Source: an uncultured Clostridia bacterium
Lineage (GTDB): Bacteria > Bacillota > Clostridia > Oscillospirales > QAKW01
Length of the DNA stretch: 64,000 nucleotides
NCBI GenBank assembly: GCA_944387895.1
Contig: CALXGQ010000021.1
Coordinates: forward strand, 15,199-79,198
Reading direction: 5' to 3'
The notes beneath the pieces were generated by a model. It did no database searches. It was not told the origin of the DNA and saw only the letters and a list, made by a program, of their open reading frames with translations. Both the position numbers and the translations under genes were made by a program. How positions within the stretch are numbered: position 1 is the first letter of the stretch; the number at the start of each line of letters is the position of its first letter. Below, piece by piece: positions 41,537-57,205 of this stretch.

Positions 41537-42037
41537 ATGATGCCCTCCTATGAGATTGAGCGAAAATTTCTGATCCTTCGTCCTGATCTTCTAAATCTGG
41601 GCACCCTTTGCCGCATCAAAGAAATTTCTCAGACCTATCTGATTACGGCGGAGGGGTCGCTTCGTGTGCGCCGAACGGAAGAGCGCGGCAAGGTTACTTA
41701 TATGGAAACCCTCAAGCGCCGGGTCAGCTCCATGCGCCGCATCGAGATCGAGCGGGAGCTTTCCGAAGCGGAATACAACCGCAGGCTGGCCGCGCGGGAT
41801 CCGCGCCGCCAGACCATCCACAAAACCCGCTACTGCCTGCCCTATGCCGGGCATATCTATGAAATCGACGTTTTCCCCTTCTGGAGCCGTCAGGCTGTTA
41901 TGGAGGTGGAACTGAAGGACGAGCAGGAGGAATTTACCCTTCCGTCCTTTATCCGGGTGATCCGGGAGGTCACCAATGACCCGCGCTATACCAACCACGC
42001 TCTGGCCCGGGAAATCCCCCCGGAGGACGCGCCATAA
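41537..42037 (+). CDS. CYTH-domain protein (triphosphate tunnel metalloenzyme)
   Basis: 166 aa with the N-terminal ExExK signature (YEIERKFLI) and later acidic/basic beta-strand pattern. Confidence 0.7.
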   Translation: MMPSYEIERKFLILRPDLLNLGTLCRIKEISQTYLITAEGSLRVRRTEERGKVTYMETLKRRVSSMRRIEIERELSEAEYNRRLAARDPRRQTIHKTRYCLPYAGHIYEIDVFPFWSRQAVMEVELKDEQEEFTLPSFIRVIREVTNDPRYTNHALAREIPPEDAP

Positions 42038-42133
42038 GCGCCGCAAAGGCAACCGCAAAACAGCATAGATTTAACCAGACGGCGCGGCTTTTGCCCCGTC
42101 GTTTTCTATTTTTCAAAGCAAAATATCAAGCCG

Positions 42134-42161
42134 ACCCCGGTTTTTGCGGCCGGGGATCGTA
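42134..42161 (+). promoter_or_regulatory. Candidate SigI-type promoter upstream of sigI (ACCCCG-N18-CGTA)
   Basis: ACCCCG at 42134-42139 and CGTA at 42158-42161, 25 nt before the sigI ATG. The same 28-bp architecture recurs at 43917-43944. Confidence 0.45.
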
Positions 42162-42186
42162 TTACTACCATAAGGAGGATCCCTGC

Positions 42187-42912
42187 ATGAACGACGAACA
42201 TCAAATCGTCCGGCAGGTCTACGCAGCGAAGGAGGACGTTCGGGCGGCAGATCAGCTGATCAACGCATACCTGCCCTTTATCCGCACCGAAACGGCAAAG
42301 TTTTTAAAACGTCCCCCCGCAGCGGAACACGACGATGAACTGAGCATCGCCATGATCGCCTTTCATGAGGCGATCAGCGGGTACCACCGCACCCGCGGCT
42401 CTTTTCTGAAATATGCCGCCCTGCTGATCCGCAGCCGGCTGATCGACTACAGCCGCTCCGAGCAGCGCCACGCCCGCGCCCTTTCCCTGGACGCGCCGGC
42501 AGGAGAAGAGGAAAAACCGCTGGGAGAAACGCTGGCGGTCAAAAAGGATCCCTATGAAGAAGCAGCCCTGCGGGACGCCACCCGGGCGGAAATCCGGGAG
42601 CTGACCAGGCAGCTGCTGGACTTTGGCGTCAGCCTCAGCGACGTGGCGGACAACTGCCCCAAGCAGCAGCGCACCCTGAACGCCTGCCGGAAGGCGCTCG
42701 CCTATGCCCAAAGCCATCCGGCGCTGATCGATGAGCTTTTGCAATCAAAACGCCTGCCCATCGGCCGGCTGACCGCCGCAAGCGGCGTAGAACGCAAAAC
42801 CCTGGAACGCCGCCGCAAATATCTGGTAGCACTACTCCTGATCCATACCAACGGGTATGAGATCATCCGTGGGCATTTAAAACAAGTGATGAAAGGAGTG
42901 GCCGAGCAATGA
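42187..42912 (+). CDS. sigI: Alternative sigma factor SigI
   Basis: ATG 42187 follows AAGGAGGA. Region 2 is LINAYLPFIRTETAKFL..ELSIAMIAFHEAI. The SigI-specific C-terminal domain is CPKQQRTLNACRKALAYA..LPIGRLTAASGVERKTLERRRKYLVALLLI. Confidence 0.8.
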   Translation: MNDEHQIVRQVYAAKEDVRAADQLINAYLPFIRTETAKFLKRPPAAEHDDELSIAMIAFHEAISGYHRTRGSFLKYAALLIRSRLIDYSRSEQRHARALSLDAPAGEEEKPLGETLAVKKDPYEEAALRDATRAEIRELTRQLLDFGVSLSDVADNCPKQQRTLNACRKALAYAQSHPALIDELLQSKRLPIGRLTAASGVERKTLERRRKYLVALLLIHTNGYEIIRGHLKQVMKGVAEQ

Positions 42913-43901
42913 ACTATCTGGTAATGGAATGCCACCCCGGCTATGCCGTCCTGCTGGACGAAGAAGGCCGCTTTTTGAAAGCCGCCAACCTTCGGTATGA
43001 AGTGGGGCAGACGGTGCAGAACCCCGTTCTGATGAAGGAGCCGGGCGAAAAGCGGCGCCCCGCGCTCCGGTGGATCGGCGGCGGGATCGCAGCTGTTGCA
43101 GCCTGCTTTCTGCTTTTCTTCGGCGTCGGCTACTATCGGAATTACATCCAGCCCTACTCTTCGATCTATCTGACCATCAACCCGGAGGTGCAGATGGATC
43201 TGAACCGGCGGGGCGGCGTGGTGAAGCTGACCGGGACAAATGAAGACGGCAAGCTGCTGCTGGAAGGCTACGACGGCAGAAATAAAGACAAAGAAACGGT
43301 AGCCGACGAGCTGATCGACAGAGCCATTGAAATGGGCTTCCTTTCAGAGGGCGGTCAGGTTTCCTTCTCCATCGATTCCCCGGACGAAGCGCTGTTCCAG
43401 GAGTACGGAACCGCCCTGCGCACCGAAATAACAACACATCTGGACGGCCGGATCTCCATCACCATCGAGATCGTCGATCATAAAAGCCAGAGCGGCTCCG
43501 GGGCGGCGGAGAAGGATCCCTCCTCCCCGCCTGCCTCCGCGCCGGGCAACGATACGCAGGAGGAAGAACCTTCTGCGGATACAGAGCCGTCCGAGGGGAG
43601 CGGTTCCTCCGGGAGCGGCAGCTCCTCTTCCGGAAGCAGCTCCTCCGGGAGCGGAACCACCGGGCAGGATCAGGAAAATGCCGGCATCCCGCCGGAAAAC
43701 AGCTCCGATGATGTGGATGATCCCGACGGCTCAGACGGTAGCGACGACGATGATGACGACGACGATGATGATGACGACGATGATGATGACGACGATGACA
43801 ACGATGTTGATAATGATGACGATGACAACGATGTTGATAATGATGACGATGACGACGATGATGACGATGATGACGACGGGGAGGATCAAAAAAAGATCTG
43901 A
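42909..43901 (+). CDS. rsgI: RsgI-like anti-sigma-I factor with an extracytoplasmic juxtamembrane domain, an S/G-rich linker and a poly-Asp tail
   Basis: ATGA overlap with sigI. The RsgI_N-like N-terminus is MNYLVMECHPGYAVLLDEEGRFLKAANLRYEVGQTV. It has one TM helix (IGGGIAAVAACFLLFFGVGYY), then INPEVQMDLNRRGGVVKLTGTNEDGKLLL, then low-complexity sequence. Confidence 0.75.
   Translation: MNYLVMECHPGYAVLLDEEGRFLKAANLRYEVGQTVQNPVLMKEPGEKRRPALRWIGGGIAAVAACFLLFFGVGYYRNYIQPYSSIYLTINPEVQMDLNRRGGVVKLTGTNEDGKLLLEGYDGRNKDKETVADELIDRAIEMGFLSEGGQVSFSIDSPDEALFQEYGTALRTEITTHLDGRISITIEIVDHKSQSGSGAAEKDPSSPPASAPGNDTQEEEPSADTEPSEGSGSSGSGSSSSGSSSSGSGTTGQDQENAGIPPENSSDDVDDPDGSDGSDDDDDDDDDDDDDDDDDDDNDVDNDDDDNDVDNDDDDDDDDDDDDGEDQKKI
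43707..43877 (+). repeat. GAY-codon microsatellite-like tract encoding the poly-Asp tail of the RsgI-like protein
   Basis: It encodes 19 consecutive Asp codons (mixed GAC/GAT), two copies of a 27-bp unit (GACAACGATGTTGATAATGATGACGAT = DNDVDNDDD), then 12 further Asp codons. Confidence 0.9.
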
Positions 43902-43916
43902 AAATGTATTCCTTTC

Positions 43917-43944
43917 ACCCCGTTTTTGAAACCGGGCTTCCGTA
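43917..43944 (+). promoter_or_regulatory. Candidate SigI-type promoter upstream of the lipoprotein gene (ACCCCG-N18-CGTA)
   Basis: ACCCCG at 43917-43922 and CGTA at 43941-43944. The spacer shares TTTTTG and CCGGG with the sigI-proximal copy. Confidence 0.45.
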
Positions 43945-44002
43945 GTCTATGAATGAAAGGCAAAGCAAAAGCCAAATGAAACACCCGAAAGGAGCAACGA
44001 CC

Positions 44003-45082
44003 ATGACCATGAAAAGAAAATTTTTTGCAGCAGCCCTCTCGATCATCGCGGCGGTTTCCATCCTTCTGACAGGCTGTAAATCCGCCTCCCCGGCAGGAAC
44101 GGCCCTGCGGGAGACCGGGATCCTGATCCTGAGCGTCAACCCGGAAATCCAGATCGAATACGATCAAAACAGCAAAGTGACCGCCCTGACCGGCCGCAAC
44201 GACGACGGCAAGCTCATTGTGGAAAACTATCCCGACTACATCGGGAAAGACTGCAACGAGGTTCTTGAAGATCTGATCATTGCGATCAATGAAGCGGGAT
44301 ACTTTGTGGACGATATCGACGGCAACAAGAAGAACATCATTTTGCAGCTGGAGCCGGGCTCCGTCCTCCCCAGCGATGATTTTCTCACGCTGGTCAGCTC
44401 CAGCACCCAGAACGCCGTCAAAAACCTGAGTCTTTCCTCCTCCATCGTGACCATCGACAACGATGACTACGACCCCACCTATGCCACCGAGAGCGAGCCC
44501 TCCCCCTATATCACGCTGGAAAAGGCGCAGGAAATCGCATTGACCCAGGCAAACGTCAGCGCGAAGGACGCCGTTTTTGAAGACAAGGAATTTGACCACG
44601 ACGACGGCACGCCGGTTTTTGAGCTGGAATTTTCCGCAAACGGCAACGAATATGAATACGATATCCACGCCGTCACCGGCAAGGTGATCAAGGCCGAGCA
44701 TGAAAGCGCCGCCGCCCAGAGCGGGAGCCAGACCACCGGCACCGAAAACTACAACGACACCGATTACGGCCCCAATAACGACGGCGTCACCGACTACAGC
44801 GACACCGACTACGGCCCCAACAACGATGGCGTCACCGACTACAGCGACACCGACTACGGCCCCAACAACGATGGCGTCACCGACTACAACGACACCGACT
44901 ACGGCCCCAACAACGATGGCGTCACCGACTACAACGACACCGACTACGGCCCCAACAACGACGGCGTTACCGACTATGACGACACCGATTATGGCCCCAA
45001 TAATGACGGCGTTACCGACTATGACGACACCGACGACGGCGCTACCGACTACGACGACGGAACCACCGATTATAACGGCTGA
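44003..45082 (+). CDS. Lipoprotein with an RsgI-juxtamembrane-like domain, a PepSY domain and acidic 15-aa tandem repeats
   Basis: ATG 44003 lies 8 nt after AAAGGAG. The signal peptide carries the lipobox LLTGC. VNPEIQIEYDQNSKVTALTGRNDDGKLIV parallels the RsgI domain. The PepSY-like region is ITLEKAQEIALTQ..YEYDIHAVTGKVI. Six copies of DTDYGPNNDGVTDYx follow. Confidence 0.7.
   Translation: MTMKRKFFAAALSIIAAVSILLTGCKSASPAGTALRETGILILSVNPEIQIEYDQNSKVTALTGRNDDGKLIVENYPDYIGKDCNEVLEDLIIAINEAGYFVDDIDGNKKNIILQLEPGSVLPSDDFLTLVSSSTQNAVKNLSLSSSIVTIDNDDYDPTYATESEPSPYITLEKAQEIALTQANVSAKDAVFEDKEFDHDDGTPVFELEFSANGNEYEYDIHAVTGKVIKAEHESAAAQSGSQTTGTENYNDTDYGPNNDGVTDYSDTDYGPNNDGVTDYSDTDYGPNNDGVTDYNDTDYGPNNDGVTDYNDTDYGPNNDGVTDYDDTDYGPNNDGVTDYDDTDDGATDYDDGTTDYNG
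44756..45082 (+). repeat. 45-bp in-frame tandem repeat, 6 full units plus a degenerate tail
   Basis: Units start at 44756, 44801, 44846, 44891, 44936 and 44981. The central units are identical apart from the last codon. The tail at 45026-45082 is degenerate. Confidence 0.95.
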
Positions 45083-45099
45083 GCCGGTTCCCCGGCATA

Positions 45100-45141
45100 A
45101 AGCGCCGGATCCCGCTCTGCGGATCGATCCGGCGCTTTTTT
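45100..45141 (+). terminator. Intrinsic terminator after the lipoprotein gene
   Basis: The 12-bp stem AAGCGCCGGATC/GATCCGGCGCTT is followed by TTTT. Confidence 0.75.
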
Positions 45142-45232
45142 CCGGCGCGGCGCGCTTTCAGAAGGCATCTTTTACCCGGCCTTCCATGCTCTGCGCCGAT
45201 TCAGGCGGGCAGCCGCATCTGGAGCGAGAAAA

Positions 45233-46669
45233 ATGAAACGACTGAAAAAAATCCTTCTGATCTGTACCGCAGCGGTGCTGATCCCGGCGATACTCGCCGG
45301 GCTGCTGTTCTTTGAGGGCTGGCTGAGCCTTTCCGGCGCCGGCGCGGCGCTGGGGTATGCAGACCGGCTTTTCGACAGCAGCCGCGTCCATACCATTGAT
45401 ATCCGTCTGGACGACTGGGAAGCCTTTATCGAAACGGCGGCGGAGGAAGCATACGTTTCCGCCGAAGTGGAGATCGACGGCGAAATCTTTCGCCACGTCG
45501 CCCTGCGCACCAAGGGCAACAACTCCCTGCGCCTGACCGAAGAATACGGCCTTTCCCGCTACAGCCTCAAGCTGGAATTCGATCGGTATCTGGACGGCAG
45601 AAGCTACTATGGCCTGGACAAATTTTCCCTGGACGCCTCCTTTCAGGACAACAGCTATCTGAAAACCTTTCTGGTTTACGACATGATGGCCTTTTCCGGC
45701 GTGCCCACGCCCTTATGCAGCTATGTCTGGGTAACGGTCAACGGCGAAGCCTGGGGTCTTTTTCTGGCGATCGAAGAACCGGAAGAAGCCTTTGCCCTCC
45801 GGAATTTCGGCGGCAGCTACGGCAACCTCTATAAGCCCGATTACCGCTCCCTGCAGGAGGAAAACGCCGATGTGGCGCTGCAATACATCGACGACAATCC
45901 GGAAAGCTATCCCGGTATTTTTGAGAACGCCAAATTTGATGTTTCGGCGGACGACCGGCAGCGGCTGATCCGGGCGCTGAAAACCCTTTCCGGTGGCGAG
46001 GATCTGGAACCCGCCGTCGACGTGGACGAGGTGCTGCGGTACTTCACCGTGCAGGTTTTTGTGATGAACTGGGACAGTTACATCGGTCATACCGGCCATA
46101 ATTATTTCCTCTATGAAGAAAAGGGAGTTATTCAGATTCTGCCCTGGGATTATAATCTGGCCTTTGGCACCTACGCCCTCGGCATGACCGATCCGATCCG
46201 GGATCCCTACGTTCTTATCAATTATCCCATCAACACCCCCGCGCCGGGCGAGATCATGCTGAACCGCCCCCTTTACCACAACCTGATGAAGCAGGACGAA
46301 TACCTTGCCCGGTATCGTTCCTATTTCGACGCTTTTATTGCGGACCATTTTGAAAGCGGCCGTTTTGCAGAAACGCTGGAGGCGGCGGCGGAGCTGATCG
46401 CCCCCTATGTTCAGAAGGATCCTTCCGCCTTCTGCTCCTATGAGGATCATCGACTGGCGGTGGAAACCCTCAAACAGGTATGCCTGCTGCGGGCCCAAAG
46501 CGTCCGTGGGCAGCTGGACGGCGAAATCCCCGACACCCTCCGGGAAATGCAGGAGCGGCCGGACGGCGGGATCGACGTATCGGGGATCCGGCTGGAGGAT
46601 CTCGGCGATTTTGCCGATCTGGAAAACGCCGGGGAGCGGCAAAGCGCCGCGCTGGCCGCGATCCCCTGA
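45233..46669 (+). CDS. cotH: Membrane-anchored CotH family kinase-like protein
   Basis: 478 aa. It has an N-terminal TM helix (ILLICTAAVLIPAILAGLLFF). The CotH pattern includes YSLKLEFDRY, FLVYDMM, GNLYKPD, NWDSYIGHTGHNYFLYEE and ILPWDYNLAFG. Confidence 0.8.
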   Translation: MKRLKKILLICTAAVLIPAILAGLLFFEGWLSLSGAGAALGYADRLFDSSRVHTIDIRLDDWEAFIETAAEEAYVSAEVEIDGEIFRHVALRTKGNNSLRLTEEYGLSRYSLKLEFDRYLDGRSYYGLDKFSLDASFQDNSYLKTFLVYDMMAFSGVPTPLCSYVWVTVNGEAWGLFLAIEEPEEAFALRNFGGSYGNLYKPDYRSLQEENADVALQYIDDNPESYPGIFENAKFDVSADDRQRLIRALKTLSGGEDLEPAVDVDEVLRYFTVQVFVMNWDSYIGHTGHNYFLYEEKGVIQILPWDYNLAFGTYALGMTDPIRDPYVLINYPINTPAPGEIMLNRPLYHNLMKQDEYLARYRSYFDAFIADHFESGRFAETLEAAAELIAPYVQKDPSAFCSYEDHRLAVETLKQVCLLRAQSVRGQLDGEIPDTLREMQERPDGGIDVSGIRLEDLGDFADLENAGERQSAALAAIP

Positions 46670-46747: not shown

Positions 46748-47301
46748 CTATGCCGTTTCTCCGTTTTGCAGATTGCTCAGCAAAGACGCGGGGAGTATTC
46801 CTGCAAGGTCATAGGAAATGTCAATCTGCTGTTCCCGATACCCCTTTGACTTGTCCGGCGCGTGAACATATACCGCCTTTACCATGTCATTGAGTATAGC
46901 GGGCGTCAGTTCGTCCAAGTTAAGATACTTCCGTACCTTGCCGATAAATAAGTCCATATTTTCTGCCTGTTCTTCCTGTTTTGTAATTTCTTCATTGAGT
47001 AGCAACAGCTTTTCCCGCAGTTCTTCCTGCTCCTGTTCGTAATCGTTAGAGAGCATTTGAAACCTGCTGTCAGATAATTTCCCGTTGGCACTGTCCTCGT
47101 AAATACGCTTGAATAGCCGGTCAAGTTCTTCTATCCGCCGTTCCGCCTGCGTCAGTTGCCGCCACTTCGCCGCAAGTTCTTTTTTCGCTTCAGCTTTCTG
47201 CTTTGCGCCCATGTATCAGCGTCAATGATCGCTTCATGGGTATTCTCAAACACAAGCCATTTTTCTTCTGGATTGTAACAGGTCTTTTTGCCATTATTCA
47301 T
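46748..47301 (-). pseudogene. Large serine recombinase remnant (a Recombinase-domain fragment fused out of frame to the DUF4368 coiled-coil C-terminus; catalytic domain absent)
   Basis: The frame from 47301 reads MNNGKKTCYNPEEKWLVFENTHEAIIDADTWAQ. A different frame from 47212 reads GAKQKAEAKKELA..FKRIYEDSANGKLSDSRFQMLSNDYEQEQEEL..VYVHAPDKSKGYREQQIDISYDL. Stop codons lie upstream of 47301. Confidence 0.7.
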
Positions 47302-47501
47302 TCACCCTATTACATTCTACTGTTCACCTTTCTTCTTGGATATGTCTATACAATTCCTGTAATTAGCTTAAATAATAATCCGAATCTGTTTGACAAATTC
47401 AAGATACGCTAAATGTTCATATGGAGTTTTAGATTACTAAAAAGAGAAATCAAGGTGCGGTCGAAACCGCGAAGCTAAAGAGATAAAACAGAGGTGGCGC
47501 A

Positions 47502-47690
47502 TTGGAAAAAGAAAAATGGGTGTTATGCCCGATCTGCAGCAACAAAACCCGAATTAAAGTGCGCCCCGATACAGTACTTGAAAACTTTCCCCTGTTCTGC
47601 CCCAAGTGCAAGCAGGAAACAATAATCAACGTAAAACAACTGAATACCACAGTTATCAAAGAGCCGGACGCACAGACGCAGAGCCGATAA
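47502..47690 (+). CDS. Cysteine-rich KTR-domain protein
   Basis: 62 aa from TTG 47502 (GAGGTGG RBS): MEKEKWVLCPICSNKTRIKVRPDTVLENFPLFCPKCKQETIINV. It has two CxxC pairs and belongs to a family typical of Clostridial ICEs. Confidence 0.75.
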   Translation: MEKEKWVLCPICSNKTRIKVRPDTVLENFPLFCPKCKQETIINVKQLNTTVIKEPDAQTQSR

Positions 47691-47728
47691 CACGCAAGAT
47701 GAAATGCGGTTATCGGCTCTGTTATTTT
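47679..47728 (+). terminator. Intrinsic terminator after the KTR gene
   Basis: The perfect 13-bp stem CAGAGCCGATAAC/GTTATCGGCTCTG is followed by TTATTTT. The 5' arm overlaps the stop codon. Confidence 0.75.
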
Positions 47729-47938
47729 GTTTGGAGGTATCAATATGTTGATTGCTATTTCTCATTATCTACAATCAAAAAAAGCCATTGCGCTTGCATA
47801 GGTTCGTGCGCCCATGAAGATGAACACACAAATCATATAGCTGTTTCTTTCCATTCATATCGTCAACGCTCATGCGGTTTGATACTGCGTGGGCGTTTTC
47901 TGTTTTGCCCCCTGTTTTGGCAGAAAGGGGGGTGAGAA

Positions 47939-48378
47939 ATGATGAATAGCAAGCAATACCGGGAGCATATCGAGCGTACTTTCAACGCCTTTTGCAAGAT
48001 CGTCCTTTATCATGCGGCGCTGGGCGCTTACAAGAAACTGCGGAAAAAGCAGCAATTTGAAGTGTCCCTCGACGATCTTCGGGAGTTTGATTTTGAGCCG
48101 GTTGCCACAGCAGATGAGTATTTTGTGAGATACGATGTGTCTACCGCCTTTACCGTTCGCGGGAAAACGGTCATCGTGGAAAACGAACAGTTAGCAGCCG
48201 CGCTTTTGCGCTTGCAGAGAAACGACGGGAAGTGCTGCTTTTGCGCTACTATCTCGGTTACAGCGACACAGAAATCGGAGAAATGTTTGGCGTTTGCAGA
48301 AGTACAATCTTCCGCAGACGGAAAAGGGCATTACGTTTCATGCGAAAAGAAATGGAGGCGTTAGAGAATGAAGAATAG
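47939..48378 (+). pseudogene. Tn916 orf7-like sigma-70-family factor, interrupted by a -1 frameshift near 48215
   Basis: Frame 1 gives MMNSKQYREHIERTFNAFCKIVL..LAAALLRLQ, then nonsense. The next frame reads EKRREVLLLRYYLGYSDTEIGEMFGVCRSTIFRRRKRALRFMRKEMEALENEE (region 4 HTH), ending at TAG 48376-48378. Confidence 0.7.
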
Positions 48379-49646: not shown

Positions 49647-50459
49647 TCACACCGCGCCGGCAAGAGAAAAATCCGCCGCTTTCAGGCACCCGGTGGGGCA
49701 GCCTTCTGCGCAGAGACCGCAGCCGCTGCACCGGGCGTAATCGATCACCGCCAGATTCCCGGCCACGGAAACGGCCCCCTCCGGACAGCTGCGCTCGCAT
49801 TTCCGGCAGCCGATGCAGGCGTTTGCGCAGGCCTTACGGGCGGCAGCACCCGGATCTCTGCTGCTGCACAGAACAACGCTCTTTCCGCTCCGCGGAACCA
49901 GAGAAATGATCTCTTTCGGGCAGGTTTCGACGCATTTTTTACAGCCGATGCAGATCCGGCTGTCGATCCGGGCTACACCGTCGGCCATGCAGATCGCGCC
50001 GGTCGGACAGACCGCCGCGCAGTCGCCGCAGCCCAGGCACCCGTACCGGCAGGCGCCCGGCCCGCCAAACAGCATGGCGACCGCCCGGCAGCTCTCCATT
50101 CCGTCGTATTGCGCTCTGGCAGGCGAAGCGGTGCAGGTGCCGTTGCAATGAACGACCGCTATTTTCGCTTCAACCGCCTCTACCTGAAGCCCCAGGATCT
50201 CCCCGATCTGCCGGGCGGTTTCGTTCCCGCCGGGGATGCAGAGGTTCGGCTCCGCTTTCCCCTCTCCCAGCGCCCGGGCATATCCATCGCAGCCGGTGAA
50301 GCCGCAGGCGCCGCAGTTGGCCCCGGGCAGGCATTCCCGCAGCCGGCCGACCGTTTCATCTTCCCGCACCATCATAAAGTGGGAAGCCAGCACCAGCAGG
50401 ATCCCGGCGATCAGCCCGATCAGACCCACCACAAGAAGACAAGTTAAAATCTCATTCAT
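49647..50459 (-). CDS. rnfB: Rnf complex subunit B (polyferredoxin)
   Basis: 270 aa. It has an N-terminal TM helix, the CGACGFTGC cluster motif and four CxxCxxCxxxCP motifs. Confidence 0.9.
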   Translation of the reverse strand: MNEILTCLLVVGLIGLIAGILLVLASHFMMVREDETVGRLRECLPGANCGACGFTGCDGYARALGEGKAEPNLCIPGGNETARQIGEILGLQVEAVEAKIAVVHCNGTCTASPARAQYDGMESCRAVAMLFGGPGACRYGCLGCGDCAAVCPTGAICMADGVARIDSRICIGCKKCVETCPKEIISLVPRSGKSVVLCSSRDPGAAARKACANACIGCRKCERSCPEGAVSVAGNLAVIDYARCSGCGLCAEGCPTGCLKAADFSLAGAV

Positions 50460-50492
50460 TCCAAACTCTCCTTCATCATGAAACGATCCCGC

Positions 50493-51092
50493 TCAGGCAA
50501 ATAAATGATCCACGACCCCGGCAAAGCCGAAAAACGCCAGCGAAACAAAGGAAGCGGCGATCAGGGTGACCGGCAGGCCTCTGAAAGGCGTTGGGATTTC
50601 CGATTCCTGGATCTTGCTGCGGATCCCGGAAAACAGCACCATCGCCAGCATGAATCCAAGCCCGCAGCCCAAAGAGCTGGCCATCGATTCAAAAAATCCG
50701 TAGCCGTCGGTCATGTTGTTGATGGTCACGCCCAGAACCGCGCAGTTGGTCGTGATCAGCGGCAGATAGACGCCCAGGCTTTTATGCAGCGCGGGCAGAA
50801 ATTTTTTCAGGGTGATCTCCGTGAACTGAACCAGCGCCGCGATCACCAGAATAAAAACGATCGTCTGCATATAGCCCAGCCCCGCCCGATCCAGAACGTA
50901 GATCTGGATCGGCCAGGTCACGGCCGTTGCCATCAGCATCACAAAGATAACGGCAACGCCCATCCCCGCCGCCTGATTGAGCTTTTTGGAAACCCCCAGA
51001 AAGGGGCAGATCCCGAGAAACCGGCTCAAAACGTAGTTATTGACCAAAACCGAGGACATAATGATCATGATGATATTCTTAAATCCGTCCAT
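50493..51092 (-). CDS. rnfA: Rnf complex subunit A
   Basis: 199 aa polytopic protein: VLVNNYVLSRFLGICPFLGVS. Confidence 0.9.
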   Translation of the reverse strand: MDGFKNIIMIIMSSVLVNNYVLSRFLGICPFLGVSKKLNQAAGMGVAVIFVMLMATAVTWPIQIYVLDRAGLGYMQTIVFILVIAALVQFTEITLKKFLPALHKSLGVYLPLITTNCAVLGVTINNMTDGYGFFESMASSLGCGLGFMLAMVLFSGIRSKIQESEIPTPFRGLPVTLIAASFVSLAFFGFAGVVDHLFA

Positions 51093-51093
51093 C

Positions 51094-51786
51094 TTATGCC
51101 TCCTCCTTTACCCCGGCGCCATCGCAGCTCCCGCTGCAATAGGCGGCGGAGGCGCAGCCCGCGCAGGAAAAGCTTTTTTTCCGGGGCGCTCTGCCATGGG
51201 TCAGCCAGCTGACCAACGCAATCATGACGCCATACACCAGCATCCCGCCGGGCGCCTTGACCAGAAAATCCACCGTATGATCCCGCAGGAAGGGGATTTC
51301 CATCCCCGCAAAGCTGCCGCTGCCAAAGACCTCCCGGATCACGGCGATGGAAAGCAGCGCCAGCGTGAAGCCCAGCCCCATGCCGATTCCGTCCAAAGCG
51401 GATTTTCCAACGGAATTTTTTCCGGCGAACATCTCCGCTCGGCCGAGGATGATGCAGTTGACCGTAATCAGCGCCAGGTATACGCCCAGCAGGTCATAAA
51501 GCTCCGGCAGAAACGCGTGCATGAACATCTGCACCAGCGTCACAAAACCGGCGATGATCACAATATAACAGGGGATCCGCACCGTTTCCGGGATCAGCTT
51601 GCGAAACAGGGAAATCACCACGTTGGAACAAATCAAAACCGCCGCGGCCGCCAGCCCCATCGCCAGCGCGCCGATCACAGTAGTGGTGGTCGCCAGCGTG
51701 GGGCAGGTGCCCAAAATCAGAACAAAAACCGGGTTTTCCAGCAGCAGACCCTTTATCAGGATCGCCATATTGCCGTTCTTTTTCAT
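51094..51786 (-). CDS. rnfE: Rnf complex subunit E (with a Cys-rich C-terminal tail)
   Basis: 230 aa with LLENPVFVLILGTCPTLATT. The C-terminal 34 aa contain C-x2-C-x5-C-x3-C. Confidence 0.9.
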   Translation of the reverse strand: MKKNGNMAILIKGLLLENPVFVLILGTCPTLATTTTVIGALAMGLAAAAVLICSNVVISLFRKLIPETVRIPCYIVIIAGFVTLVQMFMHAFLPELYDLLGVYLALITVNCIILGRAEMFAGKNSVGKSALDGIGMGLGFTLALLSIAVIREVFGSGSFAGMEIPFLRDHTVDFLVKAPGGMLVYGVMIALVSWLTHGRAPRKKSFSCAGCASAAYCSGSCDGAGVKEEA

Positions 51787-51788
51787 CT

Positions 51789-52382
51789 TCAGGCCACCCC
51801 CTTCAGCAATCCACAGATCCCCAAAGCGGCGGCCGCTCCGCTCAGCGCCGTTCCGGCGCCGCCGGAGGCTCCGGCTTCCTCGCTGCTGAGGATCAACGCC
51901 GTTTCCAGCGCGTCCTTGATGGCGTTTTTATAGGCTTCGGTGGTCATGGTGGCGCCGGAGATCACGTCCAGGCCGTCGACCGTTTCGGCCGTCGCCCCCA
52001 CCGCCGCCGCACCGTAGTCCGCCTCATAGCCCAGCGTTTCGCTGCTGGAAAGGCAGATCGCGCCGGTCACAACGCCGTTTTGATCCACCCCGCACAGGAT
52101 AACCATGCCCGTGGCATATCCGACCGTTTCCAGCGTAACCACATATCCGCCGCCGCCCGCGCGATAGACCTCCGTCACCGTTTCGGGAAGGGCATAGCGC
52201 CCGATCTCAACAGGCTGAAAATCCGCGCCCTCCGGCATGACCACCTTCAGCGCTTCCATGGCGGCGGCCGCCTCGTTCTCTTCGATGATCGGCGCCGTGA
52301 TCGCATTGGCGCCGGAAAGCAGAACCGCCACCGCCGCGCAGATCAACGTCAGCACCGCTATGCTTTTTATGTAGCTTTTCAT
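51789..52382 (-). CDS. rnfG: Rnf complex subunit G (FMN-binding)
   Basis: 197 aa from ATG 52382 (ATGA overlap with rnfD). It has a TM anchor and the FMN-attachment-type motif DVISGATMTT. Confidence 0.85.
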   Translation of the reverse strand: MKSYIKSIAVLTLICAAVAVLLSGANAITAPIIEENEAAAAMEALKVVMPEGADFQPVEIGRYALPETVTEVYRAGGGGYVVTLETVGYATGMVILCGVDQNGVVTGAICLSSSETLGYEADYGAAAVGATAETVDGLDVISGATMTTEAYKNAIKDALETALILSSEEAGASGGAGTALSGAAAALGICGLLKGVA

Positions 52383-53314
52383 GCTCGTTTCCCTCCAAAG
52401 GGCCGCGGCGCGGTCCAGGCTTCGATATATGGATTCAGGATATTCATCAGCAAAATCCCAAAGGATACGCCCTCCGGATAATTGCCCCAAAACCGGATCA
52501 GAACCGTGATCAGTCCGGCGCCTACACCAAAGAGGATCTTGCCCCAGGGCGTGGCCGGGGAGGTGACATAGTCTGTGGCCATAAAAATAGCGCCGATAAA
52601 CAGGCCGCCGGAAAAGATCCAGGCAAGCGCAAGGGAAAGATCAAAATCCGAAAGCACCCAGCTGAGCAGAAAAACCGTTCCGATAAAAGCGACCGGCAGG
52701 TGCCAGGTGATGACCCGGCGCGCAAGCAGATAAACGCCGCCGATCACCAGCGCCAGAACGCAGGTTTCGCCGATCGCGCCGCCGTGATTCCCGATAAAAA
52801 GATCCAGCAGCGCCGGCGCCTCCTCTCCGGCCGCCAGCTCTGCCAGCGGCGTTGCGCCGGTGGCGACGTCCGCCGAACGGGGAAAAGCAGCCTGGGTCAT
52901 GGTTCCGAAGGCTACCAGCATAAAGACCCGGGCGGTGATCGCGGGATTGACCAGATTGCAGCCGATCCCGCCAAACAGACCCTTGACCACCACAATGGCG
53001 AAAACGGCGCCCAGCACCGCCTGCCAGAGGGGGATATTGGCCGGCAGATTCAAAGCAAGCAGCAGCCCGGTGACTGCCGCGCTCCAATCGCCGACCGTCT
53101 GCTTTTTCCGCAGGATCAGATTGAACCCCGCTTCCGCCAAAACGGCAGCGGCAATGCAGGTGACGATCACCGCCGCCGCCCGGGCACCGAACCAGAGGAT
53201 CCCGGCCGCCGCCGCGGGCAGCAGGGAGAAGACGACGTCCCGCATAATGCTGCGCGTTGTTGTGGAACTATGGATATGCGGTGATGCGGAAAGATGCAGT
53301 TGTGCCTCCATCAT
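52379..53314 (-). CDS. rnfD: Rnf complex subunit D
   Basis: 311 aa polytopic protein: SPHIHSSTTTRSIMRDV..FMATDYVTSP. ATGA overlap with rnfC. Confidence 0.9.
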   Translation of the reverse strand: MMEAQLHLSASPHIHSSTTTRSIMRDVVFSLLPAAAAGILWFGARAAAVIVTCIAAAVLAEAGFNLILRKKQTVGDWSAAVTGLLLALNLPANIPLWQAVLGAVFAIVVVKGLFGGIGCNLVNPAITARVFMLVAFGTMTQAAFPRSADVATGATPLAELAAGEEAPALLDLFIGNHGGAIGETCVLALVIGGVYLLARRVITWHLPVAFIGTVFLLSWVLSDFDLSLALAWIFSGGLFIGAIFMATDYVTSPATPWGKILFGVGAGLITVLIRFWGNYPEGVSFGILLMNILNPYIEAWTAPRPFGGKRA

Positions 53315-54630
53315 TGAGCCGCCTCCTTTTCTTTTGCCCGGGCATCCCGCAGAACAGCCTTGGCCAGCTTATTGGTCTGAACCAGCGGCCGGCCGGCCGG
53401 GCAGATATATGCGCAGCAACCGCATTCCATGCAGAGCTCCGGCTGCAGCTTTTCCAGCTTTTTCACGTCCCCGTTCCGGTACGCCCTTGCGATCGCGGCG
53501 GGGCGCAGATGGAAGGGACAATGGTTCTGGCAGGCGCCGCAGCTGATGCAGGCAGTCGGCGCGGGAATCGCGGCGTCCTTTTCGCTGAAGGCCAGCAGGG
53601 CGTTGGTATTTTTAAGAACCGGCGCGGCCAGATCGGGAACGGAAACGCCCATCATCGGCCCTCCGTACAGCACCTTCCCGGGCGCGGCGGAAAACCCGCC
53701 GCAGGCTTCGAATACATCCCCGGCCGCCATGCCGATCGGAACGATCACATTGCCCGGCTCCCGGACTGCGCTGCCGTCTACCGTGATGCAGCGCTCCACC
53801 AGCGGCATCCCGGTGCGCAGATAGCGCCCGATGGCCGCAAGGGTGGAACAGTTGGAAACCACGCAGCCCACGTCGATCGGCAGCTTTCCGGCGGGAACGA
53901 CCTTCCCGGTGGTATGATAGATCAGCACCTTCTCCCCGCCCTGGGGATAAAGGGTGCGCAGCGGACGGACGGTGATACGCGGATCCTGCTCCGCCAGCCT
54001 GCGCATCTGAGCGATGGCCTCTTTTTTGTTGTTTTCAATACCGATCAGGATCCGGGGGATGCCCAGATGCTCCTCCAGCGCCCGGAAGGCCAGCGCCATA
54101 TCCGCCGATTCATCCAACATGGCGCGGGTATCGCTGGTGATATAGGGCTCGCATTCGGCGCCGTTGACAATCAGCTCCCGGATCCGGCCCGGATCCTCCG
54201 TAAGAAATTTCACATAGGTGGGAAACCCGGCGCCGCCAAGACCCACCACGCCGCTTTTTCGGATCGCTTCGATCAGATCCGCGCGGCTGCCGACCACCGG
54301 CGGGCAAAGGGCCGGATCCGGCGTCATGGCGCCATCGGATTCGATCAGGATCGCCGGCACGGCCGCGCCGCCGGAAAGAACGATCTCCGTGATCTTCTTC
54401 ACCGTTCCGGAAACGCTGGCGTAAACCGGCGAGGAGATCAGACCGTCCTGCTCCGCGACCAGCGTGCCCACGTCCACATGATCCCCGGCCTTGACCACCG
54501 GGACCGCCGGACGCCCGATATGCATCATCGTCGGCAACAGAACGCTTTTCGGCGCCGCCACACGCACCGCCGCCATCCGGGCAGTCGCCTTCCGGTGCGG
54601 CAGATGGACGCCATGAAGTGAAAAAGCCAT
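53311..54630 (-). CDS. rnfC: Rnf complex subunit C
   Basis: 439 aa from ATG 54630 (AAGGTAGG RBS). It has the NADH/FMN-binding GLGGAGFPT and two 4Fe-4S motifs (CISCGACQNHCP; CMECGCCAYICP). Confidence 0.9.
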   Translation of the reverse strand: MAFSLHGVHLPHRKATARMAAVRVAAPKSVLLPTMMHIGRPAVPVVKAGDHVDVGTLVAEQDGLISSPVYASVSGTVKKITEIVLSGGAAVPAILIESDGAMTPDPALCPPVVGSRADLIEAIRKSGVVGLGGAGFPTYVKFLTEDPGRIRELIVNGAECEPYITSDTRAMLDESADMALAFRALEEHLGIPRILIGIENNKKEAIAQMRRLAEQDPRITVRPLRTLYPQGGEKVLIYHTTGKVVPAGKLPIDVGCVVSNCSTLAAIGRYLRTGMPLVERCITVDGSAVREPGNVIVPIGMAAGDVFEACGGFSAAPGKVLYGGPMMGVSVPDLAAPVLKNTNALLAFSEKDAAIPAPTACISCGACQNHCPFHLRPAAIARAYRNGDVKKLEKLQPELCMECGCCAYICPAGRPLVQTNKLAKAVLRDARAKEKEAAQ

Positions 54631-54719
54631 TTTTGAACCTACCTTTCTGGTTTGCCTCCTGCGCAGGGCAGATCCCGGCTCTCTCCGGCTCTGCCTCTGC
54701 GGGGCGGGCATATGTCCTT

Positions 54720-54748
54720 ATTATAAGGCTCCGCCTGATTTCTGTCAA
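54720..54748 (-). promoter_or_regulatory. Consensus SigA promoter of the rnf operon (TTGACA-17-TATAAT)
   Basis: -35 at 54743-54748 and -10 at 54720-54725. The leader is about 85 nt, GC-rich and structured. Confidence 0.6.
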
Positions 54749-54845
54749 TGCTTTTTGCCGGGGAAAGCCTGCCCTGAAACCAAAAGAAACGGCCGGTTGC
54801 TGCTTCTTTCCCGGCGGCGGCGCCGACCGGGCGTATCCCCTTTTA

Positions 54846-56933
54846 TTAAAAATCAAATACCGCCCGGCCGTCCTCCAGCTTCAGCCGCGCCTCAAAGGGC
54901 TCCCCTTTTTTGGAAATGAATCCGGCAAGCTTGCGGGATCGCCCCTCCTCCAGCAGCTCCCGGGCGGCGGAGATGGGAACGGCCCGCCGGCAGATCACGC
55001 CGCTGATGCGGAATCTGCACCCCTCTTTATAAGATAGACATCCGTACCCGTAGCGCCCCTTCACCACCTGCCCGCCGCACAGGGGGCAGGTGCCTACCGC
55101 GTCGCCGTAAAATCCGGTGTCGGTATCCTGCTCCGGCGCCGTTTCCGCCGGATGAAACACCTTCTCGATCTCCCCGCGGGCGATCGCAACGCTATCCTCC
55201 ACGCGCAGCTCTCCGCGATAAACCTTTTTCAGCGCCTGACCCAGCGCGCTGGTTTTATATTTATCCATTTCGATCCCCATCCGCGCCAGCTCTTCGATCA
55301 GATAGGCGCCGCCGGGCAGAAGATAATAGGTGTCTTTTTTCAGCTCGATGTATCGGCTCTTGATCGCATTGCCGATAATCCCGGTACGGGTGGCCTCGGT
55401 GCCCAGCTCCAGCCCTTCAAAGATCGCCCGGTATTCCTCCCGGTCGTCCCCCGCGTCCGCCGCGGCCTTTTCGGATCGAAAGGGATTTTTCAGATAGTTG
55501 TTCAGCGTTTCGATGGTATAATGCCGGGGCGGCGTGGTTTCCTTCTCCTTCGGCTGAAAGCAGATCTCCACGGGATCCCCCACCGCAAGGGGCGGCAGCA
55601 GCTTGTTCTTCTGGCCGCCGTCGTCGTAGCGGGTCCAGCCGGGCTGCAAAATCATCGTGCCTTTCAGCCGGAACTCCTCCAAATCCCCTACCCGGATCAG
55701 CATCTCCGCTTTTTCAGCCAGACATTCCTCTGCGCAGAAAACAGCGGCAAACCGACGGAAAATCGTCTGATAAACCAGCATCTGCCGCTCGGTCAGCTGC
55801 TCTTTTTTCGGGATTTTATAGGTGGGGGTCAACGCGGAGTGGGATTCGATCTTGCTGTCGTCAAAAATGGTTTTTCCTTCCCGGAATTGTACCCGATATC
55901 CCAGCGCCTCCACCTGCGCCAGGATCTTTTTGATCTTGCCCTTCTCCTGCTCCGCAAGATATTCCGAGTTGGTGCGGGGATAGGTGATAAATCCCCCTTC
56001 ATAAAGCTCCTGCGCCAGCTTCAGGCTCTCCTCCATCGGCATCTTGTATTTTTTGCCCAACACATTTTGCAGCTTAGAAAGGGAATAGAGCTTCCCAGGC
56101 TGCAAAACGGTCTTTTTCTTTTTCTTTTCCGCCACAACCGCCTGGCAGGCGTTGAGCTGGGCGGCATATTCCTCCGCTCCGGCCCGGTTGCTTTGATCGA
56201 ATTTCTTTTTGGAGATCAGCTCGATCGGCGTGCCCTTTGTTTCGGCGTTGCTGACTACGGCGTAATACAGCTCCGGAACAAAGTTTTCAATAGCTTTATC
56301 CCGGTCGTAGACCGCCTTCACAATCGGGACGATGACCCGCCCCACCCGCAGCAGGACCCCGGTTTTCAGCGTGGCGTACCGGGTCAGATTGACGCCATAC
56401 AGCCAGTCCACATAGGTGCGGGCGAACCCCTCGTCGGCCAGATTCTGATACGCCTCTTCCTCCTTCATGGAGCCGAGCGCTTCCACCACCGTTTCCGGCG
56501 TCTGATCCGGGAGCCAGAGCCGGAAGAAGGGCTTTTTCACGCCGGTATGCTCCACGCAGAGCCGGATGATGATCTCGCCCTCCCGGTCGGCGTCCCCAGC
56601 GTTTACGATCCGCTCTACGTCCGGGCGGGCGCACAGGCTGCGGATCCGCTCAAACTGCTGCCGGATCCCTTCGTCGGGCTGTTTATCGGCGCCCTGCCGC
56701 AGACGAAACCGGAACTGCTCGGGAAAGCAGGGCAGGTTTTCCATCGACCAGCGGCCGGAAGCGGTGGGGCCGGTATATTCCTCGATATCGCAAAGGGAGA
56801 AAAGATGGCCAAAGGCCCAGGTAACAAGATATTCCTCTCCCTCATAATATCCGTTTCTTCGCGTGCATTTCCCGATCCCGGCCACGATATTGCGGGCCAG
56901 GCTGGGTTTTTCCGCGATGATCAGGGTGCTCAT
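54846..56933 (-). CDS. topB: DNA topoisomerase III
   Basis: 695 aa from ATG 56933 (GAGAGGAG RBS). It has the TOPRIM N-terminus MSTLIIAEKPSLARNI, a type IA core (ITYPRTNSEYL) and a C-terminal zinc ribbon CPLCGGQV..GCRF. Confidence 0.85.
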   Translation of the reverse strand: MSTLIIAEKPSLARNIVAGIGKCTRRNGYYEGEEYLVTWAFGHLFSLCDIEEYTGPTASGRWSMENLPCFPEQFRFRLRQGADKQPDEGIRQQFERIRSLCARPDVERIVNAGDADREGEIIIRLCVEHTGVKKPFFRLWLPDQTPETVVEALGSMKEEEAYQNLADEGFARTYVDWLYGVNLTRYATLKTGVLLRVGRVIVPIVKAVYDRDKAIENFVPELYYAVVSNAETKGTPIELISKKKFDQSNRAGAEEYAAQLNACQAVVAEKKKKKTVLQPGKLYSLSKLQNVLGKKYKMPMEESLKLAQELYEGGFITYPRTNSEYLAEQEKGKIKKILAQVEALGYRVQFREGKTIFDDSKIESHSALTPTYKIPKKEQLTERQMLVYQTIFRRFAAVFCAEECLAEKAEMLIRVGDLEEFRLKGTMILQPGWTRYDDGGQKNKLLPPLAVGDPVEICFQPKEKETTPPRHYTIETLNNYLKNPFRSEKAAADAGDDREEYRAIFEGLELGTEATRTGIIGNAIKSRYIELKKDTYYLLPGGAYLIEELARMGIEMDKYKTSALGQALKKVYRGELRVEDSVAIARGEIEKVFHPAETAPEQDTDTGFYGDAVGTCPLCGGQVVKGRYGYGCLSYKEGCRFRISGVICRRAVPISAARELLEEGRSRKLAGFISKKGEPFEARLKLEDGRAVFDF

Positions 56934-57205
56934 AAAGCCGCGCTCCTCTCCGCCCTTCGCCGCGCCGGGGTGGCGGGCAAAAGAATCAAAAAACATCCAC
57001 TCGATTCTGCCGCGGCAACACCGGACGTGAGCCCCAAAAGCTCCCGCCGGCCGCGGCGACAGCTACATTATAGCAGATCTTTTGAGAAAATAAAAGGGTC
57101 TTTCCGGAGCGATCCGGCTTTTTCTTCCATTTCAGACGAAAGAACACTTTATTTTTTTTAAAAATCATGATAAAATGTGATTAACTGTATAATAAGGAGA
57201 AGTTC

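Follow-up and report, generated by a model that had tools for sequence, protein, structure and literature searches.

What follows when the breakable domain of an envelope sensor recurs in an adjacent protein that takes no part in signalling and is apparently switched on by the sensor itself? SigI/RsgI was the first pathway of bacterial signalling for which mechanical separation of a self-cleaved domain was proposed as the working principle, and the question bears on what pulls RsgI and how the response resets. It is raised by a 64,000-nucleotide (nt) stretch of DNA from an uncultured Clostridia bacterium (contig CALXGQ010000021.1, positions 15,199 to 79,198; hereafter the window), in which a sigI-like sigma factor gene and an rsgI-like anti-sigma factor gene are followed by a lipoprotein gene. 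We consider it likely that the lipoprotein is a member of the sigma-I regulon, carries a homologue of the RsgI SEAL domain and undergoes self-cleavage. By analogy with the known systems, the cassette is most likely a sigma-I/RsgI envelope-sensing unit of gut Clostridia, with the lipid-anchored SEAL-PepSY surface protein as its dedicated sigma-I-dependent output.

The genes concerned all lie on the plus strand. The sigI-like gene (42187–42912, 241 residues) and the rsgI-like gene (42909–43901, 330 residues) share an ATGA stop-start overlap at 42909–42912, and 101 nt separate the stop codon of the latter from the ATG of the SEAL-PepSY lipoprotein gene (44003–45082, 359 residues), behind which lies a cotH-family gene (45233–46669, 478 residues; CotH match 3.8e-56) whose product has an N-terminal signal anchor. 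Coding sequences of identical length (241, 330, 359 and 478 residues) were called on three independent metagenome contigs with an identical SigI. The lipoprotein start at 44003 is preceded by AAAGGAG and was also picked by an independent gene caller. The alternative ATG at 43949, which gives the longest open reading frame, was rejected: it falls inside the promoter and transcription start region, has no ribosome-binding site, and is out of frame in relatives such as the locus L001. An intrinsic terminator, consisting of a long G+C-rich hairpin followed by UUUUUU, is found 3' of the lipoprotein gene at 45099–45141 (+). The 68-nt stretch that bears it (45083–45150) has a minimum free energy of -38.4 kcal/mol (z = -3.6), and cotH stands apart behind it in the window.

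The sigma factor contains Sigma-70 region 2 (PF04542, 5.4e-8, 33 bits against a cut-off of 24). Its ten top NCBIfam matches are all SigI models, with E-values down to 7.7e-51, and the next family scores 42 bits; the protein is therefore placed in a divergent SigI subfamily and not in another family. It aligns end to end with Clostridium thermocellum SigI6 (8i24_F, 8e-20), and residues 132–231 align to the C-terminal domain of SigI1 (6ivu_B, 5.9e-9), which is specific to SigI and replaces sigma4.

The anti-sigma factor comprises an RsgI_N-like N-terminus, a transmembrane segment at about residues 55–77, a SEAL domain (RsgI_M) at residues 83–199 (nt 43155–43505) and an acidic disordered tail at residues 200–330. 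RsgI_M (PF23750) is matched at 7.8e-20. RsgI_N was matched in 11 of 16 RsgI orthologues, with a best value of 5e-6, and a search of the PDB with the N-terminal domain, family profile included, gave no match. The single transmembrane segment, WIGGGIAAVAACFLLFFGVGYY, is a hydrophobic stretch between the N-domain and the ectodomain; this segment, like the lipobox of the lipoprotein, was assigned by reading the translations. The RsgI family profile matches Bacillus subtilis RsgI (8t9n, 3e-8) and the C. thermocellum RsgI chains 8hep_B and 8her_B. In the window protein Asn91-Pro92 (nt 43179–43184) is the predicted autoproteolytic site, since it aligns with the Asn|Pro site of the B. subtilis and C. 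thermocellum proteins, and both 8hep_B and 8her_B start at the proline aligned with Pro92. The tripeptide INP is kept in 51 of 51 RsgI orthologues. The C-terminal third of the protein is Ser/Gly-rich and then nearly pure Asp, the latter encoded by about 14.6 copies of GACGATGAT at 43746–43876 (+), as delimited by Tandem Repeats Finder and the translation. As a pair, the sigma and anti-sigma factors are divergent SigI/RsgI family members.

The lipoprotein is built of a signal peptide (residues 1–24), Cys25 (nt 44075–44077), a SEAL domain (residues 39–155, nt 44117–44467), a PepSY domain (residues 170–232, nt 44510–44698) and a disordered, acidic, Asp/Tyr-rich tail. The signal peptide, MTMKRKFFAAALSIIAAVSILLTGC, ends in the lipobox LTGC, which fits the pattern [LVI][ASTG][GA]C; Gly24 and Cys25 are invariant in 14 lipoprotein homologues, and 49 of 51 orthologues carry a lipobox. 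Four independent routes indicate true homology between the N-terminal domain and RsgI SEAL. In direct comparison, a 36-residue stretch of the lipoprotein aligns to RsgI with 16 identities and no gaps, and the whole proteins match each other by BLASTP at E = 1e-11 over 96 residues. The Pfam model of RsgI_M matches residues 43–155 at 2e-12 (48.3 bits against a cut-off of 25.3). Alignment by hhalign of a profile of 16 RsgI orthologues with one of 14 lipoprotein homologues reached 98.2% probability (E = 2.8e-14) over 124 columns, the entire domain. Finally, the AlphaFold model of the lipoprotein is confident at residues 39–140 and 170–235, with pLDDT over residues 39–140 mostly about 80–92 and falling to about 50 at residues 104–108, and its top Foldseek matches in the PDB are 8t9n_B and 8t9n_A, the B. 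subtilis RsgI SEAL domain (probability 1.0, TM-scores 0.63 and 0.57, E = 1e-4). The Foldseek matches after these are the PepSY proteins 4exr and 5boi, and the PepSY model (PF03413) matches residues 170–232 at 4.7e-12 (46.5 bits against a cut-off of 24).

The RsgI_M domain is the SEAL domain of Brogan et al. 2023 (PMC10556640, main text) and the periplasmic domain of Chen et al. 2023 (PMC10328401). In these two reports the domain was shown to cleave itself between the Asn and Pro of the beta1-beta2 hairpin, with the pieces remaining associated, and cleavage of RsgI at N97|P98 was demonstrated. In the lipoprotein the corresponding predicted site, based on the model and on conservation, is Asn46-Pro47 (nt 44138–44143): in the model these residues occupy the turn (residues 45–47) between strands 39–44 and 48–53. 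Asn46, Pro47, Glu48, Asn66, Asp68 and Gly69 are invariant among the 14 lipoprotein homologues, and the motif VNPE[IV] occurs in all 51 orthologues (VNPEI in 50, VNPEV in one). The flanking N-x-D residues are kept in 47 of 51 lipoproteins, and in 47–48 of 51 across the RsgI and lipoprotein sets. Asn66 and Asp68 lie 20 and 22 residues after Asn46, as Asn117 and Asp119 do after Asn97 in RsgI2, a correspondence that goes by spacing alone. Both RsgI and the lipoprotein are predicted to self-cleave, because the Asn-Pro motif is conserved in both families.

An earlier note on this DNA had read much of this from the letters. Its gene layout, with the ATGA overlap and the 101-nt gap, agrees with the present gene calls. 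Its SigI identification is borne out by the NCBIfam ranking and by the full-length alignment to SigI6 and SigI1 including the C-terminal domain, its RsgI-like identification by the weak RsgI_N match, the transmembrane segment and RsgI_M, and its lipoprotein call by the LTGC lipobox with the invariant Cys25. The ungapped alignment with 16 of 36 identities was reproduced exactly, and the profile and structure comparison that it had proposed found the shared domain homologous by BLASTP, Pfam, hhalign and fold. Its description of the juxtamembrane domain of Bacillus RsgI as autoproteolytic matches the published SEAL self-cleavage (PMC10556640, main text; PMC10328401). The PepSY domain and the usual vtc-DUF4956-cotH continuation of the cassette, described below, were absent from it.

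The assignment of the lipoprotein gene to the sigma-I regulon rests on a promoter motif. ACCCCG-N18-CGTA occurs exactly twice in the 64 kb, both strands searched (42134–42161 and 43917–43944), against an expectation of 0.06 per window, and one of 100 shuffles reached two. Each site lies just 5' of one of the two transcription units: the predicted sigma-I-type promoter of sigI-rsgI (ACCCCG, T-tract and CGTA) spans 42134–42168 (+), and that of the lipoprotein gene, ACCCCGTTTTT-N13-CGTAGTCTATG, spans 43917–43951 (+). Eighty loci from species-representative genomes were fetched with a lipoprotein probe and 80 with a SigI probe (the best 80 for each), samples that lean towards close relatives and metagenome-assembled genomes (MAGs) from chicken gut. 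The motif in these relatives is longer, ACCCCGgTTTT-N12/13-cCGTAwTCTAT, with a constant ACCCCG-CGTA spacing of 18 nt, and upstream of sigI as well as of the lipoprotein gene the positions that were not forced by the search are 75–100% conserved. The site lies 25–100 nt upstream of the start codons in the correct orientation. Published SigI promoters follow ACCCCC--AA-N15-CGAA----T in Bacillales and C-----AAA-N13/14-CGWA in cellulolytic clostridia (PMC4711584); the motif shares with them a Bacillales-type ACCCC block, an A/T tract that ends 12–13 nt before the -10 element, and a CGTA that conforms to CGWA. Its place before sigI itself fits the known autoregulation of SigI. By form, position and conservation, the motif is strongly supported as a sigma-I-type promoter.

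A weight matrix was built from about 100 orthologous promoters of other genomes only. The lipoprotein promoter at 43917 is the best site in the window with 36.1 bits, and the next best site beyond the two promoters, at 55019, scores 10.7 bits, compared with 11.6 bits for the highest maximum among 20 shuffled windows. This site (55019–55053, +), which lies antisense inside a topoisomerase III gene, was considered as a third promoter and dismissed as chance. Within the 80 loci fetched with the lipoprotein probe, matrix sites precede the lipoprotein gene in 65 cases, sigI in 53 and rsgI in three, with five elsewhere and none before cotH; the matrix is partly circular for its source loci, where specificity is what counts. 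More independent is a scan for the exact pattern in 185,579 species genomes (at least 120 stretches matched). Among the sites listed, 118 had enough downstream sequence to be evaluated. In 105 of these the next gene downstream is sigI, rsgI or the lipoprotein gene, and 61 of the 118 lie upstream of the lipoprotein family; under uniform composition about nine matches would be expected by chance across all the genomes scanned. Of the 13 remaining listed sites, several precede small lipoproteins of Faecalibacterium with PepSY and an acidic tail.

Some further observations concern the motif. In Faecalibacterium and other genomes (L166, 1007-; L178, 1736-; L248, 6384-; L268, minus strand) it stands before PepSY-only lipoproteins or secreted proteins with acidic tails and no SEAL domain, and in one genome it lies 5' of a class A penicillin-binding protein; these sites may be further regulon members or chance matches. 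The spacer holds an inverted repeat, CCCCGG...CCGGGG in the sigI site of the window and CCCCGGTTTT..AAAACAGGGG in many relatives, which could be the site of a second regulator or a feature of SigI recognition.

The earlier note had counted the same two sites and none elsewhere in the window, as the exact search of both strands also found, and the SigI consensus that it gave agrees with the published one. Its proposed genome-wide search, now run, places the motif upstream of both genes across dozens of species and rarely elsewhere. As for the spacer bases that it saw shared by the two sites, TTTTTG belongs to the T-tract conserved in relatives, while CCGGG is not conserved. The weaker variant that it placed before cotH (45174–45200) did not hold up: it scores below 8 bits, under the shuffle maxima, and cotH has no such site in the 80 loci.

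The arrangement of the genes is equally constant. The sigI-rsgI-lipoprotein triad, for which the earlier note had suggested a synteny survey, was found in 46 of 46 SigI-seeded loci with at least 3.5 kb downstream of sigI, and cotH in 43 of the 46. After sigI-rsgI the order is lipoprotein-vtc-DUF4956-cotH in 34 loci, cotH-lipoprotein-vtc-DUF4956 in three, lipoprotein-cotH, the layout of the window, in six, and the lipoprotein gene only in three. The VTC and DUF4956 genes were identified by Pfam in L001 (7570–8946). Most relatives have them between the lipoprotein gene and cotH; the window (45083–45232) and six other genomes have neither. In the relatives vtc-DUF4956-cotH is probably co-transcribed with the lipoprotein gene, because these genes lie close behind it and none has a sigma-I site of its own.

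Hosts of the cassette include Oscillospiraceae, Lachnospiraceae, Erysipelotrichaceae, Carnobacteriaceae and Christensenellales, many of them chicken-gut MAGs or isolates. The flanks vary by genome, and the CYTH, PPIase and Rce1-like genes upstream in the window are unlinked to the cassette elsewhere. Between Owariibacterium, Intestinimonas and Gemmiger, more than 8 kb of cassette DNA is 92–95% identical; L001 1918–10427 compared with L006, L008, L004 and L011, a set that adds two uncultured Clostridia, keeps this identity including about 2.6 kb upstream. Such identity across genera means that the cassette moves horizontally, and indicates recent transfer of an island. A search of a plasmid collection with the lipoprotein returned two distant PepSY matches only, and the cassette is not plasmid-borne in that collection.

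These findings suggest how the unit would work. If it follows the B. subtilis and C. thermocellum systems, RsgI would cleave itself at N91|P92, and the shared beta-sheet would keep both pieces joined. A pull or unfolding transmitted through the acidic disordered tail would strip off the ectodomain, after which a site-2 protease would cut the RsgI stub and free sigma-I. Sigma-I would then transcribe sigI-rsgI, in positive autoregulation, together with the lipoprotein gene, and in most relatives the lipoprotein transcript would run on into vtc-DUF4956-cotH. The lipoprotein in turn would cleave itself at N46|P47, leaving a lipidated peptide of about 22 residues (Cys25–Asn46, strand beta1) that would hold the ectodomain of SEAL, PepSY and acidic tail non-covalently, so that the ectodomain could be shed under force.

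Whether the output then acts back on the sensor is a separate matter. The lipoprotein has the breakable domain of the sensor and the same kind of acidic tail, without a cytoplasmic part, and might for this reason engage the extracellular partner of the sensor and damp or tune RsgI activation; we regard this decoy or feedback step as plausible but tentative, and on the whole doubtful. That the lipoprotein acts on the input of the sensor can be argued from its being the invariant companion of sigI-rsgI, from its SEAL domain, and from the DYGP tails, since about half of the related loci have the DYGP repeats of the lipoprotein in their RsgI tail as well. In a fuller and rather improbable version, the lipoprotein would be a sigma-I-induced mimic of the sensor, rivalling RsgI for the pulling partner or swapping beta1 strands with the stub after shedding and so setting the threshold of mechanotransduction by negative feedback, while VTC, DUF4956 and CotH would modify or load the acidic tails in most relatives.

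Several observations weigh against the account given so far. The sigma factor falls below the curated NCBIfam cut-offs for SigI (NF006178, 172.9 against 306 bits; TIGR02895, 152.7 against 185 bits), and RsgI_N (PF12791) reaches only 7e-4 in the window protein, 19.8 bits against a Pfam cut-off of 25. The minor-groove motif of SigI6, PKHRDS (K170/H171/R172, helix alpha9), reads PKQQRT here (residues about 158–163), with Gln in place of His, and SigI6 loses its activity in the mutants H171N, H171S and H171A. Read on the coding strand, the promoter tract is T-rich and not A-rich. Because the minor-groove His is Gln and the tract is T-rich, DNA recognition by the window SigI may differ in detail from that of SigI6. 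The sigI promoter of the window, at 17.9 bits, is weaker than the lipoprotein promoter, and we infer the use of both by the window SigI only from the form, position and conservation of the motif. The tails of the two window proteins, Ser/Gly-rich and then poly-Asp in RsgI and DTDYGP repeats in the lipoprotein, are both acidic and yet unlike in sequence. C. thermocellum RsgI8 has no Asn-Pro motif, and SEAL-like domains need not all cleave. Lastly, the present evidence fits a feedback or decoy role and the role of an independent effector alike.

Two side observations belong to these points. The change from His to Gln in SigI, taken with the T-rich instead of A-rich tract, is maybe a co-varying change in sigma-I/DNA recognition. 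3' of its -10 element, the sigI promoter is degenerate, with TTACTAC where the consensus has wTCTAT.

That the lipoprotein belongs to the sigma-I regulon as an effector in its own right, exerting no influence on RsgI signalling and using SEAL as a mere breakable tether, is a serious possibility, if somewhat short of an even one. PepSY and the acidic repeats would then act at the surface, for example in protease inhibition, in cation or matrix binding, or in cooperation with VTC, DUF4956 and a secreted CotH kinase. The position of vtc-DUF4956 directly after the lipoprotein gene in 37 of the 46 loci, with no sigma-I site of its own, suggests one operon and one function. The Faecalibacterium lipoproteins with PepSY and an acidic tail, among the matches listed, point the same way: because they carry the same promoter motif and no SEAL domain, PepSY and the tail seem to be what stays constant in the output. 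The triad of CotH, polyphosphate polymerase and DUF4956 affects Pel-dependent aggregation in S. intermedius, and surface proteins with MAIN domains can serve as a model for release by force that involves no signalling. What such an effector leaves unexplained is the presence of the sensor's own domain in an output protein, the sharing of tail repeats in about half of the loci, and the retention of the lipoprotein in 46 of 46 loci when vtc-DUF4956 and cotH are dispensable.

The lipoprotein SEAL domain might instead be a non-cleaving structural relic, and the protein an ordinary, permanently anchored PepSY lipoprotein beside sigI-rsgI. RsgI8 is a precedent for SEAL-like folds that need not cleave. 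Asn-Pro and the neighbouring polar residues are, however, the most conserved positions of the lipoprotein, which is hard to explain without selection for cleavage, and according to the main text of Brogan et al. (PMC10556640) the SEAL domains of two further protein families self-cleave in Escherichia coli; we consider the relic unlikely. It is very improbable that the motif is the operator of another regulator or an unusual SigA promoter, through which the lipoprotein gene would be co-regulated with sigI by that factor, for although the spacer inverted repeat (CCCCGG...CCGGGG in the window) is of a kind liked by dimeric regulators and SigI has no minor-groove His of the SigI6 type, both blocks match the published -35 and -10 elements with the right distance from tract to CGWA, the spacing is fixed, the sites lie correctly placed and oriented before the start codons and before sigI itself, and a scan for SigA-type promoters found no such hexamers in either intergenic region and three matches in all, every one within coding repeats.

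The remaining features of the locus can be described briefly. The lipoprotein tail is encoded by a 45-nt tandem repeat of about 6.5 copies at 44748–45040 (+; Tandem Repeats Finder, 93% matches), giving 15-residue Asp/Tyr-rich units built on DTDYGPNNDGVTDY, and the number of DYG[PSE] repeat motifs in orthologues ranges from 0 to 10. By eye, the repeat can be likened to DxDGxxDxxD calcium-binding motifs. An Rfam scan of 41900–45400 (E of at most 1) gave sub-threshold chance matches alone, with no known riboswitch or leader in the 5' untranslated regions. Right after cotH, at 46748–48364, are a C-terminal recombinase fragment with DUF4368 only (minus strand), a Cys_rich_KTR gene and one more small gene; together they resemble what is left of an integrated mobile element, or its edge. 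The region 49647–56996 (minus strand), read by eye from the translations, appears to hold an Rnf-type electron-transport operon (about 49647–54711) and a topoisomerase III-like gene (54846–56996), both ordinary and unrelated. Upstream, the CYTH-domain gene (41537–42037) adjoins the sigI promoter; CYTH is distantly related in structure to the VTC domain, which the cassette of the window lacks, and this resemblance is probably coincidental.

Every orthologous locus examined has the arrangement, which has been exchanged between gut genera. With two promoters and three to six genes, it is a compact system in which to ask whether SEAL serves as a releasable tether and whether a sensor-like decoy tunes force sensing. 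It also gives a handle on the surface role of the widespread VTC-DUF4956-CotH set and, for a SigI subfamily whose minor-groove residue differs, a promoter motif that is well defined.

A literature search for SigI with CotH, RsgI with PepSY and SEAL with PepSY found no description of a sigI-rsgI-SEAL/PepSY-lipoprotein cassette, nor an account of the two-site promoter motif or of a sigma-I-induced, non-signalling copy of a sensor domain. The remark of the earlier note that it was aware of no description of the architecture stands, within that search, for the cassette and for the lipoprotein promoter, but not for SEAL-PepSY proteins without an anti-sigma domain. One sentence in the main text of Brogan et al. 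2023 (PNAS, PMC10556640) reports SEAL-PepSY fusions, some of them without an anti-sigma domain or transmembrane segment, so the domain combination, going by that text, is not new. These fusions have the same architecture as the lipoprotein and conserve the catalytic hairpin residues; the main text mentions neither lipidation, linkage to sigI-rsgI, a sigma-I promoter, an acidic repeat tail nor the vtc-DUF4956-cotH continuation.

The continuation itself has relatives elsewhere. NELoc-2 of C. perfringens (Lepp et al. 2010, PMC2879425) opens with a SigI-like sigma factor and a 348-residue "cell wall" hypothetical protein, with VTC-domain genes, membrane proteins annotated as tubulin/FtsZ-like and CotH behind them; it was published as a gene list without interpretation, and in that list, by which it is compared here, the SEAL-PepSY lipoprotein does not figure. 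CotH, polyphosphate polymerase and DUF4956 form the accessory trio of Gram-positive Pel loci, with CotH secreted (PMC7112168, PMC12345266), and a 2025 paper did not find the set outside Pel loci. The same three genes are attached here to sigI-rsgI-lipoprotein and not to pel, and the window keeps cotH alone. C. thermocellum cseP, which encodes a secreted CotH-dockerin protein, is sigma-I6-dependent.

The closest known systems are SigI/RsgI of B. subtilis and SigI1-9/RsgI1-9 of C. thermocellum. They have the same sigma2 and SigI C-terminal domain, and the same translationally coupled anti-sigma factor with one transmembrane segment and a juxtamembrane SEAL domain with Asn-Pro; their inhibitory N-domain has a putative counterpart in the window RsgI. 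Their sigI promoters are autoregulated, as is predicted for the window, and combine a C-rich -35 block with an A/T tract and CGWA at -10. B. subtilis RsgI has a disordered tail, as does the window RsgI. The window differs from them in its adjacent second SEAL protein, which is lipid-anchored, has no transmembrane or cytoplasmic part and stands behind the same type of promoter; in the absence of a carbohydrate-binding module; in its strongly acidic tails (poly-Asp, DTDYGP repeats); and in its T-rich tract and the Gln in place of the minor-groove His. Regulons of the window type appear tiny and local, whereas the published regulon genes of C. thermocellum are cellulosomal. The SigI regulon of B. 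subtilis comprises cell-wall genes such as mreBH, lytE and bcrC.

Outside this family, self-cleaving MAIN (microbial GAIN) domains have been proposed to release surface proteins under shear (Brogan and Rudner, bioRxiv 10.64898/2026.05.12.724683). In MAIN-domain proteins and eukaryotic SEA-domain mucins, as predicted for the lipoprotein, a cleaved domain whose pieces stay joined tethers an ectodomain that force can release; the lipoprotein is distinguished by another fold, by its Asn-Pro chemistry and by a lipidated anchor of about 22 residues, from which release is predicted.

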